From positions 141,378 through 205,377 of the forward strand of contig JAOPTX010000004.1 in assembly GCA_051532055.1 (NCBI GenBank): a stretch of DNA of 64,000 bases. The letters run 5' to 3'. Position numbers and translations under genes: made by a program. The notes beneath the pieces are model-generated. The model was not told the origin of the DNA and did not search any database. It saw only the letters and a program-made list of their open reading frames with translations. The stretch is from Fibrobacterales bacterium. GTDB taxonomy: Bacteria > Fibrobacterota > Fibrobacteria > Fibrobacterales > JAOPTW01. Below, in pieces: positions 18,468-41,770 of the stretch. The number at the start of each line of letters is the position of its first letter. Position 1 is the stretch's first letter.

Positions 18468-18625
18468 CTCTCATGGTAGGTGTGTAAGCTACAATTAGCA
18501 GGGCGTAGGGGAATATTAAAAAGTAATTATATCTATTTGCCTGCTTTTTATAGGTTGGCTATTTGGTGAAACTTTGATATACTTCTTATTAAATATTTGA
18601 AACATTCAGTTCTATCCAGGAGAAT

Positions 18626-19222
18626 ATGATGGCCACTAAGAAAGCTGCCAAAAAAGCAATTAAAAAAACTGTTAAAAAAGCAGTAAAAAAAGCAGTTAAG
18701 AAAGCTGCCAAAAAAGAAGTAAAAACGACTGTTAAAAAAGCGGTCAAGAAAGCGGTCAAGAAAGCTGCCAAGAAAGCTGCCAAAAAAGCAGTTAAAAAAG
18801 CAGTGAAAAAAGTTGAGAAAAAAGTAGTTAAAAAGGTTGTCAAAAAGGTCGCAGCAAAAACTGTTAAAGCTGTTGAAAAAAAAGTGGTGAAGAAAACGGT
18901 TAAAAAAGTTGTCGCTAAAAAAAGTGTTACTAAGAAGGCTGTTACTAAAAAACCTGCATCGTCAAATGCAGTATCAAAACCAACTCAATTTGAAATTTAT
19001 TCTCCTGACTCAAAAGATGTCTATCTTGCCGGGTCATTCAATGGTTGGGAAATGCTCAAAATGAAACAAACTAAAAGCGGTGTTTGGGCAACTAAAGTAT
19101 CTCTTCGAATTGGTGAGCATCAGTATAAATATGTATTCGAAGGTGTTTCATGGGAAATAGATCCTGCTGCACCAGCAATATCATCTGAACAAGGTTTGAA
19201 CAACCTTGTAATAGTAAAATAA
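18626..19222 (+). CDS. Histone-H1-like Lys/Ala/Val repeat region fused to a CBM48 (AMPK-beta-like glycogen-binding) domain
   Basis: 110 aa of KKxx repeats, then VYLAGSFNGW..M...GVW...L..GEHQYKYV...W..DP...NN. CAGGAG ribosome-binding site upstream. Confidence 0.85.
   Translation: MMATKKAAKKAIKKTVKKAVKKAVKKAAKKEVKTTVKKAVKKAVKKAAKKAAKKAVKKAVKKVEKKVVKKVVKKVAAKTVKAVEKKVVKKTVKKVVAKKSVTKKAVTKKPASSNAVSKPTQFEIYSPDSKDVYLAGSFNGWEMLKMKQTKSGVWATKVSLRIGEHQYKYVFEGVSWEIDPAAPAISSEQGLNNLVIVK
18638..18955 (+). repeat. Degenerate 12-nt coding tandem repeat (KKAV/KKAA/KKVV units)
   Basis: About 23 in-register tetrapeptide units, e.g. AAGAAAGCTGCC, AAGAAAGCGGTC, AAAAAAGCAGTT. Confidence 0.9.
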
Positions 19223-19233
19223 TCAAGAGGTTT

Positions 19234-19258
19234 ATAGGTGCCTGAGGGCACCTGTTAT
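19234..19258 (+). terminator. Possible terminator hairpin
   Basis: AGGTGCC-TGAG-GGCACCT just after the stop codon. The U-tract is weak. Confidence 0.45.
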
Positions 19259-19371
19259 CTCGGTATCGTATTTCTCCTTGTAACTTTCTTTAGAAGGAGC
19301 TCTCTCTCCTTCGCAATCTATTGCCATCATCTATAAAACTAGCTACAATTGGATAAGTTTAATATGAGGGA

Positions 19372-20364
19372 TTGCATGTGGTTGCTTTTCGGGCACTGAT
19401 ACTCACAATTATCACCCTATTATTTTCGCTGGTAGTACTCCAGTGTAGTGATACTCAATCAAATAAAAATTCTCGTCTTCATATTACGGTATCGACTTAT
19501 TCAGTATATGAATTAGTAAATGAACTCGTGCAAGGTGTACCTGGCGTTTCGCTGGAATTACTGGCACCTGGGAACAAGGGGTGCTCCCATAATTATGTAC
19601 TCACTCCTCAAAATATGATGACATTGAATAATAGTCGATTGTTAGTCCTTAATGGTTTGGGCATGGAGGCGTTTATCACTGAAAAAATATTGTCTCAATA
19701 TCCAAAACTATTTGTAATTGTAGGGGCCGCTGGAGTTCCTGACTCTTTGGTGCTCTATAGTGATTCTGAAAATACTGAATTGTCTGGTCTTCATGAAAAC
19801 CATGATCATCATGAGCATGAAGAAGGCGTTCACCAAGCAAATCCTCACTATTTGCTTTCGCCACTCGAACGACTCTATGGTGCGCAGTCCGTTGGGGAGG
19901 CATTGATGCATATTGATACGAACTACACAAAGCATTATCAAACGAATCTCGATAGTATTCGCCAAAGGCATAAAGCCCTGAGTACAATTGAAAGAGTGAG
20001 TCGGACAGAGTCTTTTAGGGTGATAACCCAAGATGCCCTTTTTGCCTATCTATTGCCGCAACTCAATATAGCGAGTGTCGGTACCCTTCATGCCCATGAT
20101 GGTGCGCGCCCAACTCTTGCAGAACTTAAGGTGTTGGTTGAACAGCTAAAGGGGCAAGTGGTCGATGCGCTTTTTGTTGAGAATGAAATGTCCCCAGAGG
20201 TATTGGAAACACTCTCACGTGAAGTGTCGGTGCCAGTTGTGTTATGGGAATCTACGCCTAATGCTCTTGCCCAAACCGATGTGCTTGGCTACTACAAACG
20301 GCATGCGCGCAATATGAAACGTTTGAATGAAGTAGTTATATCAACTGAAAAGGGTCGTGAATGA
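19372..20364 (+). CDS. znuA: Zn/Mn ABC transporter substrate-binding lipoprotein (ZnuA-like)
   Basis: LQC lipobox-like site, GCSHNY.LTP, LNGLGME, His-rich loop HENHDHHEHEEGVH, and NPH. Confidence 0.82.
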   Translation: MHVVAFRALILTIITLLFSLVVLQCSDTQSNKNSRLHITVSTYSVYELVNELVQGVPGVSLELLAPGNKGCSHNYVLTPQNMMTLNNSRLLVLNGLGMEAFITEKILSQYPKLFVIVGAAGVPDSLVLYSDSENTELSGLHENHDHHEHEEGVHQANPHYLLSPLERLYGAQSVGEALMHIDTNYTKHYQTNLDSIRQRHKALSTIERVSRTESFRVITQDALFAYLLPQLNIASVGTLHAHDGARPTLAELKVLVEQLKGQVVDALFVENEMSPEVLETLSREVSVPVVLWESTPNALAQTDVLGYYKRHARNMKRLNEVVISTEKGRE

Positions 20365-21143
20365 GTACTGCGGTAAGTCTTAAAAATGTGTCCATTAACT
20401 TGCATGGGGTTTCGATACTTAAGAACGTCTCGGCGACAATTCCTGTAGGTGGTTCGACTGCTATAATTGGGCCAAATGGCGCGGGAAAGACGACGCTCTT
20501 AAAGGCTATATTAGGTGAGGTGCCTTATGAAGGGGTGATACAATACTCTCATGATGAGCCTGGTCAGAGGCCAAGGATTGGGTATGTGCCTCAACGACTC
20601 CATTTTGATAGAGGTATACCGTTGCAGGTAATAGAGTGCTTGGCTATGGGGCAACAGCGAAGGCCATTATGGTTAGGTATTAAAAAAAATGTGCGCAGTA
20701 ATGCATTGGGGCTTCTTCGGTCAGTGAAGGCTGAGCACCTTGCAGAGAGGCGTCTTGGAGAATTATCAGGAGGGGAACTCCAGCGGGTACTTCTCGCTTT
20801 AGCCCTTCAGCAAGAGCCTCAATTACTGATTCTTGATGAGCCGGCGGCTGGGGTAGACCCTCATGGCGAGCTGCTCTTTTGTGAAATCCTTGAAGCACAG
20901 CGAAAAGAACGGGGATATACACAGCTCATGGTTAGTCATGATTTGGGGACGGTGAGTAATCATGCGACCCATGTTATCTGTTTGAACAAAGAGGTGGCGG
21001 CTGAGGGTGCGCCACATGACGTTCTCACTCAAGAGGTGCTGACCACAATTTTTGGTGCGCATATGGGGTTAGTGAGTCCTGCAATAGCTTCGGATGGGAT
21101 GGTGCATAGTCATAATTGCCAGCATCATAAGGAGGATGTATGA
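20361..21143 (+). CDS. znuC: Zn/Mn ABC transporter ATPase (ZnuC-like)
   Basis: GPNGAGKTT, IGYVPQ, LSGGELQRVLLA, LDEP, VSHDL, VICLN and a His/Cys-rich tail. Confidence 0.85.
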   Translation: MSTAVSLKNVSINLHGVSILKNVSATIPVGGSTAIIGPNGAGKTTLLKAILGEVPYEGVIQYSHDEPGQRPRIGYVPQRLHFDRGIPLQVIECLAMGQQRRPLWLGIKKNVRSNALGLLRSVKAEHLAERRLGELSGGELQRVLLALALQQEPQLLILDEPAAGVDPHGELLFCEILEAQRKERGYTQLMVSHDLGTVSNHATHVICLNKEVAAEGAPHDVLTQEVLTTIFGAHMGLVSPAIASDGMVHSHNCQHHKEDV

Positions 21144-21985
21144 TTGAGTGGATATGTTCAGGTTTAGCGTGTCTTCCTATTGCGGGCATGGAAATGCAGT
21201 TTATGCAGCTTGCACTTTTAGGTGTGTTGATCTTGGCGCCCTTGACGGCGATGATGGGAGTGCAAGTAGTTAATTTTAGAATGGCTTTTTATGCTGATGC
21301 GATAAGTCATACGGCTTTTACGGGAGTCGCTTTAGGATTGCTTTTTGGTTTTAATCCCTATTGGACTATGCCTCTCTTTGGGGTAGTTGTGGGGGTGGGG
21401 ATTGTTGCGCTTCAACGAAAAAGCATGTTGGAATCCGATACCATTATTGGGGTTCTTTTCTCTGGCGTACTAGCTTTTGGTCTGGCGATTGTAAGCAGGG
21501 ATCGTTCGATTGGTACTGATATAACGCGATTTCTCTATGGTGATATTCTTACGATTAGTCACTCAGATTTGACGTGGCTTTCAATTTTGGCAATAATAGT
21601 GGTTCTTTATCAGGTGCTTGGCTTTAATCGTCTTATCTATGTAGGGCTCAATCCGGTTCTTGCTGAAACACATCGGGTAACCGTTTCCTTTTATCAATAC
21701 AGTTATGCGGTGCTCCTTGCGTTAGTTGTTATCTTTGCTGTTTGGTGGGTAGGGGTGTTGTTAGTTACAGGAATGTTGATATTGCCTGCGGCAGCTGCAC
21801 GTAACTTGTCTCGATCGGCGGGGGTGATGTATTGGTGGGCGTTAATTATTAGCCTTACTTCTGCGGTAGTGGGGCTCTATATCTCTGCTCAGTCCTGGGC
21901 TCAAACAGCAACAGGAGCAACTATTGTGTTGGCTGGTTTTTGTTGGTTTGTGGTGAGTGTTGGTGTCCGTGCTATAAAAAAATAG
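21140..21985 (+). CDS. znuB: Zn/Mn ABC transporter permease (ZnuB-like)
   Basis: RMAFYADAISH..F.GVALG, LYGDIL and GVLLV...LILPAAAAR motifs of the ABC-3 family. Confidence 0.85.
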   Translation: MIEWICSGLACLPIAGMEMQFMQLALLGVLILAPLTAMMGVQVVNFRMAFYADAISHTAFTGVALGLLFGFNPYWTMPLFGVVVGVGIVALQRKSMLESDTIIGVLFSGVLAFGLAIVSRDRSIGTDITRFLYGDILTISHSDLTWLSILAIIVVLYQVLGFNRLIYVGLNPVLAETHRVTVSFYQYSYAVLLALVVIFAVWWVGVLLVTGMLILPAAAARNLSRSAGVMYWWALIISLTSAVVGLYISAQSWAQTATGATIVLAGFCWFVVSVGVRAIKK

Positions 21986-39076: not shown

Positions 39077-41770
39077 GTGGCAGTTACGAAAGCAAAGAAA
39101 AAAGCAGTGAAGAAACCTGCAACAAAATCGGCGCGTAAAACAAGTGTTGATGAAGAAGAGAGCGACTTGAATTCAACGGGCCGTGAGATAGGAGGGTGGT
39201 TTTTTATTGCCCTTGCTACACTCTTTCTTATATCACTACTTTCTGAGTTTGCCTCTGCTGGTAGTGCTAATCTTATGGGAGCCTATCTTGGAGAATGGCT
39301 CGCAACAACACTTATTCGAATTGCTGGGAAACTTCCCTCATTACTCTTCATTGTTATGCTCTTTTCACTCGGTATTCATGTGTTACAGCTTTCAGTGATT
39401 AAAGTGTCGAGTCGATTTACCGGGTTTATGTTACTCCTTTTTATAGAGATATCTATTCTGTTGAGTTTAAAAAATCTTGAAGTCGCGCAGTTTGCTTTGG
39501 AAGATTTTGAAAATACTGGTGGGGTTGTGGGCAATTTTTTGGTTGACTTCCTCTACGCGTCCCTTTTTGGAGAGTCTACCTTTCTTGCCTACGCATTTAC
39601 TCTCACTGCCCTGTTCTTTAGTGTGATTTGGGCCACTGAATTTAGACCATCTACCATTATCGATAAGGTATTAATTACCGTATCTGATTATCGTGAAGAG
39701 GCTCGCCTCAGAAAGGTAGCCAAACGTCAAGAGCTTGAGAATCGAGTGAAAGAGTATGAAGCAGCCGAAATAGAGGTGGTAAAGAAGGCTAAGAAGAAAA
39801 AGAAAAGTGAACCGAAAGTTGCTGATACAACACAGGAAACACCATTTTTTGAGCCTATTGAAGATGATGCTGATATTAGTAATGACTATGTGAATGAACT
39901 CAAAGAGATGGCAAAAGATCCAACCCTTGACCCCCGTGAGAAAAGACGAGTACGAGATGAACTTGCACGGGTACAACGGATGTCAGAGCTGAATGATTGG
40001 GAAGACCGCGATACACAAAAGGTGAAAATTGGTGGACTCATCGGAAAGCAGGGGGCAAAAGGCTCCAAGGCCGAAGAGGGTGCAGAGTCGACTAAAAAAT
40101 TGACTAAAAAAGAGAGTAAGGCGCTACAGAATAAAAAAAGCGATTCTGAATCTATTGCGGGTGATCTTAAGCAAGAGGCAGAAAATAACAGTGGCACTGA
40201 AATATCAGAGGATGAGAAAGAGACTAAAGCGATCTCGGTGATTAAACAACGAGAGATAACCGCGGCTAAAAAGAGAGAAGTGAAGTACGACACGTATGTG
40301 ATACCTGAAGTAACCACTCTTCTCCCATCACCCCCTTTTCAGGAAGTGAGTTATACTGAAGCTGAATTGATGGATTTGAGTAAACATCTCGAAGTACAGC
40401 TCGCTAATTTTAGGGTAAAGGGGAAGGTGACAGGGATATGTACCGGTCCGATTATTACACGTTTTGAAATTGACCTTGCTCCTGGAGTAAAGGTTTCAAA
40501 AATTTCTGGGTTATCCGATGATCTTGCTCTGGCACTTAGGGCAAAGTCGGTAAGAATTCTTGCGCCCATACCAGGCAAAGCTGCAGTGGGAATTGAAATT
40601 CCCAACTTAAAGCCTCATATTGTTTTTGGACGCGATGTATTTGAGTCAGATGCTTTTCAGACAGGTCCCGATAATATAATGCTTGCTCTTGGTAAAGATA
40701 TTGCAGGGGATGCCTTTACACTCGACCTTGCAGCTGCCCCTCATTTATTGATTGCGGGTCAAACAGGGTCGGGTAAGTCAGTTTGTATTAATACTATTAT
40801 GGCTTCAATTATTGCAACAAAAACCCCTGATGAACTAAGAATGATTCTTGTGGATCCTAAAGTGGTTGAACTAAAGCCGTATGAAAAAATTCCTCATCTA
40901 CTCCATCCGGTAATTACCAGTCCCGATATTGCAATTCAAGCACTTAAGTGGGCATGTATCGAAATGGATAGACGCTATGAGGTTTTAGCGAAGGGTGGTG
41001 TGAGAAACCTCTTTGGCTTTAACCAAAAATTCAAAGATGGAGCCCTTGAAGGGCGCGTTGATACAGAAGATAATATGCTCATGCCTTACTTGGTTATTGT
41101 TATTGATGAGCTTGCCGACCTTATGATGGTGGCCGGTAAAGAGGTTGAAACATCTATTGCTCGTATTGCCCAAAAGGCTCGGGCAGTGGGTATTCATTTA
41201 ATACTTGCGACTCAGCGTCCATCGGTGCAAGTAATTACCGGTACAATTAAGGCAAATCTCCCCTCACGTATTTCATTTAAAGTGGCATCTCAGATTGATG
41301 CACGAACTGTACTTGATAAAATGGGAGCTGAGAAGTTACTTGGTCGTGGTGATATGCTTGTACGGACGGTGAGAGATCCTGAAGCGGTCCGGGCTCATGG
41401 TGCATTTCTTTCGGATCAAGATATTGAAGCGATTGTAGAGCAGTCGGCAAATCAGTTTGTGAACTATCCGCAACTCGAAGCTTTTGATACTGGAGAAGGT
41501 GATGGGGCTACCGAAGCAGATTTTGGACCACGGGACTCTAAATTCAATGAAGCAGCTGAGTTGGTAGTACATGCAGGGTCGGCCTCAACCTCAATGCTTC
41601 AACGTAGACTTGGAGTGGGGTATGCTCGTGCAGGTAAAATTATAGACCAGATGGAGGGCAATGGGATTATCGGCCCTCCTAAAGGTTCTAAGCCCCGTGA
41701 AGTATTACTTAATGACACAGAGCTTATGAGTTTTTTATCGGGTGATGTTGATCAAATAATATTGGATTAA
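39077..41770 (+). CDS. ftsK: DNA translocase FtsK
   Basis: N-terminal TM domain, PHLLIAGQTGSGKS, IDELADLMM, LATQRPS and gamma domain S.SMLQRRL.VGYARAG. Confidence 0.96.
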   Translation: MAVTKAKKKAVKKPATKSARKTSVDEEESDLNSTGREIGGWFFIALATLFLISLLSEFASAGSANLMGAYLGEWLATTLIRIAGKLPSLLFIVMLFSLGIHVLQLSVIKVSSRFTGFMLLLFIEISILLSLKNLEVAQFALEDFENTGGVVGNFLVDFLYASLFGESTFLAYAFTLTALFFSVIWATEFRPSTIIDKVLITVSDYREEARLRKVAKRQELENRVKEYEAAEIEVVKKAKKKKKSEPKVADTTQETPFFEPIEDDADISNDYVNELKEMAKDPTLDPREKRRVRDELARVQRMSELNDWEDRDTQKVKIGGLIGKQGAKGSKAEEGAESTKKLTKKESKALQNKKSDSESIAGDLKQEAENNSGTEISEDEKETKAISVIKQREITAAKKREVKYDTYVIPEVTTLLPSPPFQEVSYTEAELMDLSKHLEVQLANFRVKGKVTGICTGPIITRFEIDLAPGVKVSKISGLSDDLALALRAKSVRILAPIPGKAAVGIEIPNLKPHIVFGRDVFESDAFQTGPDNIMLALGKDIAGDAFTLDLAAAPHLLIAGQTGSGKSVCINTIMASIIATKTPDELRMILVDPKVVELKPYEKIPHLLHPVITSPDIAIQALKWACIEMDRRYEVLAKGGVRNLFGFNQKFKDGALEGRVDTEDNMLMPYLVIVIDELADLMMVAGKEVETSIARIAQKARAVGIHLILATQRPSVQVITGTIKANLPSRISFKVASQIDARTVLDKMGAEKLLGRGDMLVRTVRDPEAVRAHGAFLSDQDIEAIVEQSANQFVNYPQLEAFDTGEGDGATEADFGPRDSKFNEAAELVVHAGSASTSMLQRRLGVGYARAGKIIDQMEGNGIIGPPKGSKPREVLLNDTELMSFLSGDVDQIILD

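Follow-up and report, generated by a model that had tools for sequence, protein, structure and literature searches.

A lysine-tailed CBM48 protein of Fibrobacterota as a candidate link between glycogen and the nucleoid

Within a 64,000-nt stretch of a Fibrobacterales genome (the window), we found a gene for a real, well-conserved and uncharacterised protein in which a long lysine-rich tail precedes an AMPK-beta-type CBM48 module. Comparative evidence leads us to read it, tentatively, as a non-catalytic glycogen-surface protein that would tether glycogen to the nucleoid in the manner of PhaF and PhaM, a reading to which we give close to, though short of, an even chance. The closest named homologues of the protein come from Fibrobacterales. 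The host genome comprises 5.17 Mb and ~3,700 genes and is 94% complete.

Gene structure

The gene and its local signals are as follows.
18555..18583 (+): sigma70-like promoter candidate, TTGGCT, 17 nt, extended TG and TATACT (consensus scan)
18618..18622 (+): Shine-Dalgarno AGGAG, 6 nt before ATG 18629 (sequence; conserved in ortholog locus L013)
18629..19222 (+): CDS, 197 aa, lysine tail and CBM48 (the ATG at 18626 is not kept in L013)
18638..18955 (+): KKxx/KKxxx repeat tail, residues 5-110 in 198-aa numbering, net about +46 (composition, tandem repeats; low-confidence/disordered in the structure model)
18977..19219 (+): AMPK-beta-type CBM48, residues 118-198 (Pfam, PDB sequence match, alignment, model, Foldseek)
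19227..19261 (+): 3' RNA hairpin, terminator-like stem without U-run (–20 kcal/mol, z –4.1; conserved)

Translation of the window shows 18626-19222 (+) to be open without stops over 198 codons, and the first-pass annotation had accordingly given a 198-aa protein. The frame stands, but we moved the start to the second ATG (18629), which leaves 197 aa, since this ATG follows AGGAG by 6 nt and the first ATG reads ATA in the ortholog locus L013, where the product has 205 aa. The ribosome-binding site reported earlier is this AGGAG, kept in L013. Uncharged runs in the first 110 aa, as read from the sequence, are at most four residues long; hence there is no signal-peptide core, in agreement with the earlier call of a protein without a signal peptide. 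Monocistronic expression, also proposed previously, is supported, short of proof, by the promoter-like site upstream (both hexamers and the TG are kept in L013) and by the 3' hairpin, whose L013 counterpart has z –5.0, although the hairpin lacks a U-run and was not called by the terminator scan. A contig of RNA run X2, a library from the same sample, spans 18630-19117 and hints weakly at transcription; the run consists of contigs only, from which neither an expression rank nor transcript boundaries can be read, and may include DNA. The gene is flanked by a response regulator and by a ZnuA/ABC-ATPase/permease metal-uptake operon (19372-21985, +), which lies directly downstream in an order identical to that in L013.

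CBM48 module

The Pfam family PF16561 (AMPK1_CBM) matches residues 120-197 with 46.9 bits (cut-off 26.8), PF02922 (CBM_48) scores 36.7 bits (cut-off 22.4), and the motifs GSFNGW, GVW, YKY and WEIDP are all present. The best solved relatives are the glycogen-binding domains of AMPK beta: 1z0n was found by sequence (E 1.7e–12), and the domain model (pLDDT 93-97) has the AMPK beta-sandwich fold, matching 1z0m in Foldseek with TM 0.89 (by target) and rmsd 1.5 Å over 82 columns. Residues W141, K168, W176 and N192, as well as G136 and G152, are invariant in 70/70 aligned family rows. We take the first four to be the equivalents of the AMPK sugar-site residues W100, K126, W133 and N150. Two further AMPK residues, L146 and T148, presumably complete the sugar site from a hairpin; the L146 position is Q189 in the window protein and the T148 position is a gap. 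The protein shares the fold and these four residues with AMPK beta but is a bacterial protein that stands alone, without a kinase partner, and the hairpin, altered here, is missing in 39/70 family rows. It belongs to CBM48/AMPK1_CBM, its hairpin being imperfect, and the fold together with the four conserved site residues predicts glycogen binding. The ortholog is annotated as a GH13 glycoside hydrolase; we reject this label, as the catalytic (beta/alpha)8 domain is absent and the window protein carries no catalytic domain. When 1.8 billion representatives were searched with only the CBM, multi-repeat proteins dominated the matches, which were uninformative on tails.

Lysine-rich tail

Residues 1-110 comprise K49, V24, A21, T8 and E3, with a net charge of +46; the pI is 10.4. 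KK pairs recur with period 4 and then period 5. The DNA encoding the tail forms a degenerate tandem array of 12-bp units (period 12, 15.4 copies), and the structure model gives the tail a pLDDT of 45-74 per block of 10 residues. This Lys/Ala/Val/Thr-rich, low-complexity and poorly ordered repeat tail corresponds to the histone H1-like type seen in Hc2 and AlgP. Profile scans did not assign it to a family: the Pfam scan had no PF07382 (HC2) row at E ≤ 0.1, and in the NCBIfam scan NF038053 reached 12.5 bits against a cut-off of 80. Taken with the domain data above (both Pfam matches over cut-off, and the fold), the composition bears out the first-pass description of an N-terminal KKxx polycation joined to an AMPK-beta-type CBM48. 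The tail probably binds nucleic acid, judging from its composition, from the Hc2-like and TopB proteins that carry the same kind of tract in the genome, and from the precedent of PhaF and AlgP.

Could such a tail be a tolerated low-complexity extension generated by repeat slippage, leaving a small standalone CBM48 as the only functional part? In favour are the tandem DNA repeats, the existence of untailed relatives and the homologue P0002, whose domain is 83% identical but whose tail counts 47 residues, compared with 117 in the window protein. Against this, no loss is seen in 56/56 f2 and 10/10 f6 proteins (f2, f6 and the like denote families of the phylum), and the lysine fraction stays constant. 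The tracts are moreover rare genome-wide and are absent from f2 GlgE (0/24) and from GlgC (0/8). We therefore consider slippage on its own quite improbable.

Distribution in Fibrobacterota

PF16561 matches occur in 78 of 151 phylum genomes. By family, they were found in 56/56 genomes of the sister family f2 (exactly one each), 1/1 of f3, 1/1 of f6, 8/8 of f10 and 0/12 of f4. A further 21 class genomes gave matches in 9/11 f6 and 1/8 f4 genomes; the lone f4 match is below cut-off, in an 816-aa frame, and no over-cut-off match is present in the 20 f4 genomes of the two sets (0/20). The gene is single-copy in f2, and each of the 56 extracted f2 proteins combines tail and CBM48; all nine over-cut-off f6 matches and G104 are tailed too. 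The pairing holds throughout the principal family of Fibrobacter, bacteria that digest fibre. Tail length in f2 varies about fourfold (35-132 aa, median 77, CV 0.26), while the lysine fraction is steady (0.21-0.37, median 0.30, CV 0.08) and the net charge ranges from +9 to +31; for these statistics L097 was manually given an internal Met as its start. The tail thus keeps its charge density but not its sequence, a pattern of a charge-selected disordered region.

Outside the class we found short or untailed standalone CBM48s (5/8 f10 proteins and some in f15 and f9) as well as membrane-anchored types, which indicates that the tail is dispensable for some roles of the module. Look-alike clusters also appear in Bacteroidota and Planctomycetota in the Atlas, a lead only, with tails uninspected. 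A survey of co-occurrence between tailed CBM48s and glg genes, suggested previously, proved uninformative, since glgB and glgC are near-universal (136/151 phylum genomes each). At least three genomes (G136, G004 and G029) have a PF16561 match without glgB, and these matches are of untailed or membrane types.

Duplication and tail expansion

The host genome has two PF16561 genes. The paralog, on contig C7, encodes 129 aa with a shorter K/A/T tail and is divergent from rpe. The order rpe / CBM48 / lysA is seen in f2 and f3 loci. As the paralog has this arrangement, the window gene is a relocated second copy. In a quick-search family tree built on 84 columns the two copies form their own clade (support 95). 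The window copy is the duplicate, with an expanded and more highly charged tail, as the comparison with P0002 indicates for its length.

Basic tracts recur on glycogen proteins

We searched for basic tracts with a rule applied per 30 aa (K ≥ 7, K/A/V/T/P/S ≥ 24, net ≥ +6). Only 13 ORFs in the whole host genome are flagged, and three of them, the two CBM48s and GlgE, count as glycogen proteins. Among the rest are TopB, a tail-only Hc2-like protein, an IF-2-like protein (labelled by eye), two TonB-like proteins and one LysM protein. The hypergeometric P-value for glycogen proteins is 4e–6, or 3e–4 with paralogs counted once, for a 10-gene glycogen set picked after the data were seen. That only 13 ORFs in 5.17 Mb pass this relaxed rule led us to reject both a chance origin of the architecture and the idea that everything in the lineage carries a tail. 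Among relatives, the rule flags 3 ORFs in ~328 genes of G086, 2 in 156 of G034 (one of them GlgE) and 0 in 155 of G102. The Pro/Ala-rich GlgE tail of G102 was missed, so the rule undercounts tails of this composition. A tail-only genome search matched only itself (1/5 genomes) and hence could not count tails.

Other glycogen enzymes carry basic extensions as well. N-terminal GlgE tails, defined as extensions of at least 30 aa with a net charge of at least +5, are present in the host genome, in 12 of 15 parsed f4 genomes (18 fetched) and in 3/7 of f6; a family-wide GlgE tail was rejected for f2 (0/24). A K-rich loop of 23-62 residues is inserted in the GlgB N-terminal domain in 14/14 genomes of genus g2 (L215, L224-L236) and is absent in the 6 other f2 genomes parsed (2 unparsed). 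GlgC is untailed in the eight proteins inspected. Family f4 hence lacks the tailed CBM48 and has a mostly tailed GlgE, f2 is the reverse, and the host genome and f6 carry both. This complementarity is suggestive and does not amount to a statistical test; f2 and f4 are two related families and stand for kin events rather than independent samples. A C-terminal K/A tail is found in another CBM48 clade, in 3/8 f10 genomes (L052:2297-2698, L053:2230-2607, L057:2375-2770), and is likely an independent fusion (clade support 88-92, with long branches).

These comparative data speak for a link, under selection, of basic tails with glycogen proteins. They would also allow for a glycogen-positioning system of Fibrobacterota, with the tailed CBM48 as tether in most Fibrobacteria and tailed GlgE or GlgB replacing or backing it up elsewhere, which we think somewhat less likely than not.

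Glycogen metabolism and genomic context

The genome codes for glgC, a GT4 glgA/GlgM, glgB, glgP, malQ and a GlgX-like GH13. The GlgM-type GT4 gene ('glgA_Coryne') is directly followed by the GlgE-like gene whose product begins with the K/A/T tail (G000:C16:32650-35674, the same as L015:650-3674). A classical GT5 GlgA gave no convincing match in this genome, only two weak and unclassified ones. Its gene content thus amounts to a full glycogen pathway; glycogen metabolism in the genome had been named in the first-pass annotation as a prerequisite of its hypothesis. In F. succinogenes, glycogen can make up as much as 70% of the dry weight (PMC10308913). No neighbourhood link to glg genes was observed in nine listed family loci, at the paralog locus or in the window. 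The neighbours in the loci read are rpe/lysA in conserved order or, in the window, the response regulator and znuABC.

An alternative offered earlier was polyphosphate binding. In this reading the tail would bridge polyphosphate and glycogen stores as an AlgP-like protein might; the H1-like tail of AlgP does localise to polyphosphate granules (PMC9239181). Neither ppk1 (TIGR03705) nor ppk2 (PF03976) was found in the 94%-complete host genome, which weakens this alternative and makes it highly improbable.

Expression of the F. succinogenes ortholog

P0157, named in public records as a protein of F. succinogenes S85, shares 41% identity over 61 residues with the domain of the window protein. From gene order (Fisuc_1535 rpe, Fisuc_1537 lysA) and annotation, we infer that P0157 is Fisuc_1536. 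This gene is highly expressed, with 800 RPKM in cellulose-grown and 1417 in glucose-grown cells (PMC4668043, supplementary file 1). In the same data, two of the four listed histone-family (HU-family) genes have 595/448 and 432/853 RPKM (cellulose/glucose), glgB has 308/259 and the downstream lysA 111/199; Fisuc_1536 is thus expressed at ~7× lysA (PMC4668043). In chemostats it rises with growth rate (log2FC +3.2, padj 6e–5; PMC6204037, Tables S2/S3), which suits a function in cells that grow and divide better than one in late nucleoid condensation. Its absence from the table of envelope and secreted proteins in PMC4668043 is neutral.

The rise with growth rate is also what one could expect if RNA (in mRNA leaders or ribosomes) were the target of the tail and the protein, titrated or localised by glycogen, linked carbon stores with translation. 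The first-pass annotation missed this stronger rival: the KPAA tail (CTD) of P. aeruginosa PhaF binds specific transcripts and stimulates translation via its lysines (PMC12818456). In E. coli, moreover, glycogen and polysomes both lie outside the nucleoid (PMC11042326). The IF-2-like protein of the host genome itself carries a K-rich tract; K/A tracts on IF-2, TonB-like and LysM proteins, together with the RNA-binding PhaF tail, mean that DNA is not the sole candidate partner. On the other hand, only the composition of the tail is conserved, which argues against specific RNA recognition, and tails on the enzymes GlgE and GlgB fit localisation better than regulation. We hold a translational role to be unlikely.

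High expression could also reflect a charged coat, a cationic brush that keeps glycogen particles from fusing or from phase separation, or attracts acidic enzymes of glycogen metabolism, in the way of a phasin or PTST and with no stable tether. The very high glycogen load of F. succinogenes (PMC10308913) and the tails on several granule enzymes would suit such a coat, and loss of PhaM or AlgP alters granule size and number (PMC13052382, PMC9239181). That size effect is, however, itself ascribed to nucleoid attachment; a tail of +20 to +47 would hardly stay free amid nucleic acid; and the protein has no coiled coil of the kind found in plant PTST. We hold a coat of this type to be unlikely, and about as plausible as the RNA reading, the main rival.

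Proposed role and comparison with known systems

In the tether reading that we prefer, the CBM48 would seat the protein on intracellular glycogen and the lysine tail would grip a polyanion non-specifically, most likely chromosomal DNA, with avidity arising from many copies per particle. Glycogen particles tethered to the nucleoid would then spread to both daughter cells, and the window copy, with its expanded and more charged tail, is predicted to be the stronger binder. The outcome would differ from E. coli, where the nucleoid passively excludes untethered glycogen, which accumulates at the old pole, offsetting the nucleoid and skewing division (PMC11042326); here glycogen would not be pushed to the pole. 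The notion of a glycogen counterpart of PhaF/PhaM, put forward in the first-pass annotation, is upheld in part by the anatomy of the protein, the glycogen pathway and the link between tails and glycogen proteins; in the loci read, the gene never lies beside glg genes.

One end of PhaM and PhaF binds PHB and a histone-like end binds DNA (PMC13052382). Like the window protein, PhaF of Pseudomonas putida and PhaM of Cupriavidus necator join a polymer-binding and a K/A-rich histone-like part in one non-catalytic chain (PMC13052382). The window protein differs from them in targeting, by CBM48, soluble branched glycogen and in its reversed order, with the tail N-terminal. No phasin or PhaC-binding family was found in its Pfam and NCBIfam scans, the gene is not clustered with synthesis genes, and the model reveals no oligomerisation region. 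AlgP of P. aeruginosa spaces polyphosphate granules; it shares the long Lys/Ala repeat tail, which it needs for granule spacing (PMC9239181). Unlike AlgP, the window protein has KKxx rather than KPAA repeats and a CBM48, and no ppk was found in its host. Chlamydial Hc2 and related H1-like proteins (PF07382) are similar in Lys/Ala/Val/Thr composition, yet the window protein does not match PF07382, and the genome has a separate tail-only Hc2-like gene. Expression of the ortholog, highest in fast growth, is also not that of a late-stage condenser (PMC6204037).

The plant PTSTs are non-enzymatic CBM48 proteins that place an alpha-glucan store and act via coiled coils and thylakoid-bound MFP1. The window protein is likewise a non-catalytic CBM48 but, in contrast to PTST with MFP1, has its polycationic tail on the CBM itself. 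It would work like PhaF and PhaM if our reading holds, and it is neither a GH13 enzyme nor a homologue of Hc2 or phasins.

A literature search, with most subscription journals outside its scope, brought up no account of a protein of this kind. PHB, polyphosphate, carboxysomes and magnetosomes all have known positioning proteins, and the word glycogen does not occur in a 2025 review of these (PMC13052382); nucleoid attachment has to date been demonstrated only in granules of other storage compounds. If true, the tether would be the first one between glycogen and the nucleoid in any bacterium, and anchoring would let cells with up to 70% glycogen divide evenly. The positioning rule would then extend to the commonest bacterial carbon store by way of a small tether, encoded by one gene, in bacteria that accumulate glycogen to an extreme degree. 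The tether could also serve as a tool for redistributing glycogen in cells.

Other lysine-rich and CBM48 proteins

Several further proteins with basic tracts were noted. A 411-aa protein (G000:C12:53225-54460, minus strand; L002:6226-7461) combines a KKxx tail of ~150 aa and an E/K-rich middle with a CxxC...CxxC region at the C-terminus; it has no Pfam or NCBIfam match and no Atlas match at 0.9 or above, and is possibly nucleic-acid-binding. A 120-aa protein (G000:C32:163944-164306, plus strand; L003:5945-6307) is made of KKKVA repeats only, a standalone H1-like protein that scores 27.3 bits with PF07382 HC2, below the cut-off of 40. A DNA topoisomerase III (G000:C7:148010-150688, minus strand; L006:4011-6689) ends in a KKKVA tail of ~50 aa. 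In the window itself, FtsK (39077-41770, +) starts with a short K-rich stretch.

Proteins of 205-285 aa at L043, L050, L055, L056, L058, L059 and L100 have an N-terminal Cys/His region and a hydrophobic segment, with CBM48 at the C-terminus. Judged by eye, the Cys/His region resembles an anti-sigma zinc site, and these proteins are possibly alpha-glucan-sensing anti-sigma factors; L050 gives a weak DUF3379 match.
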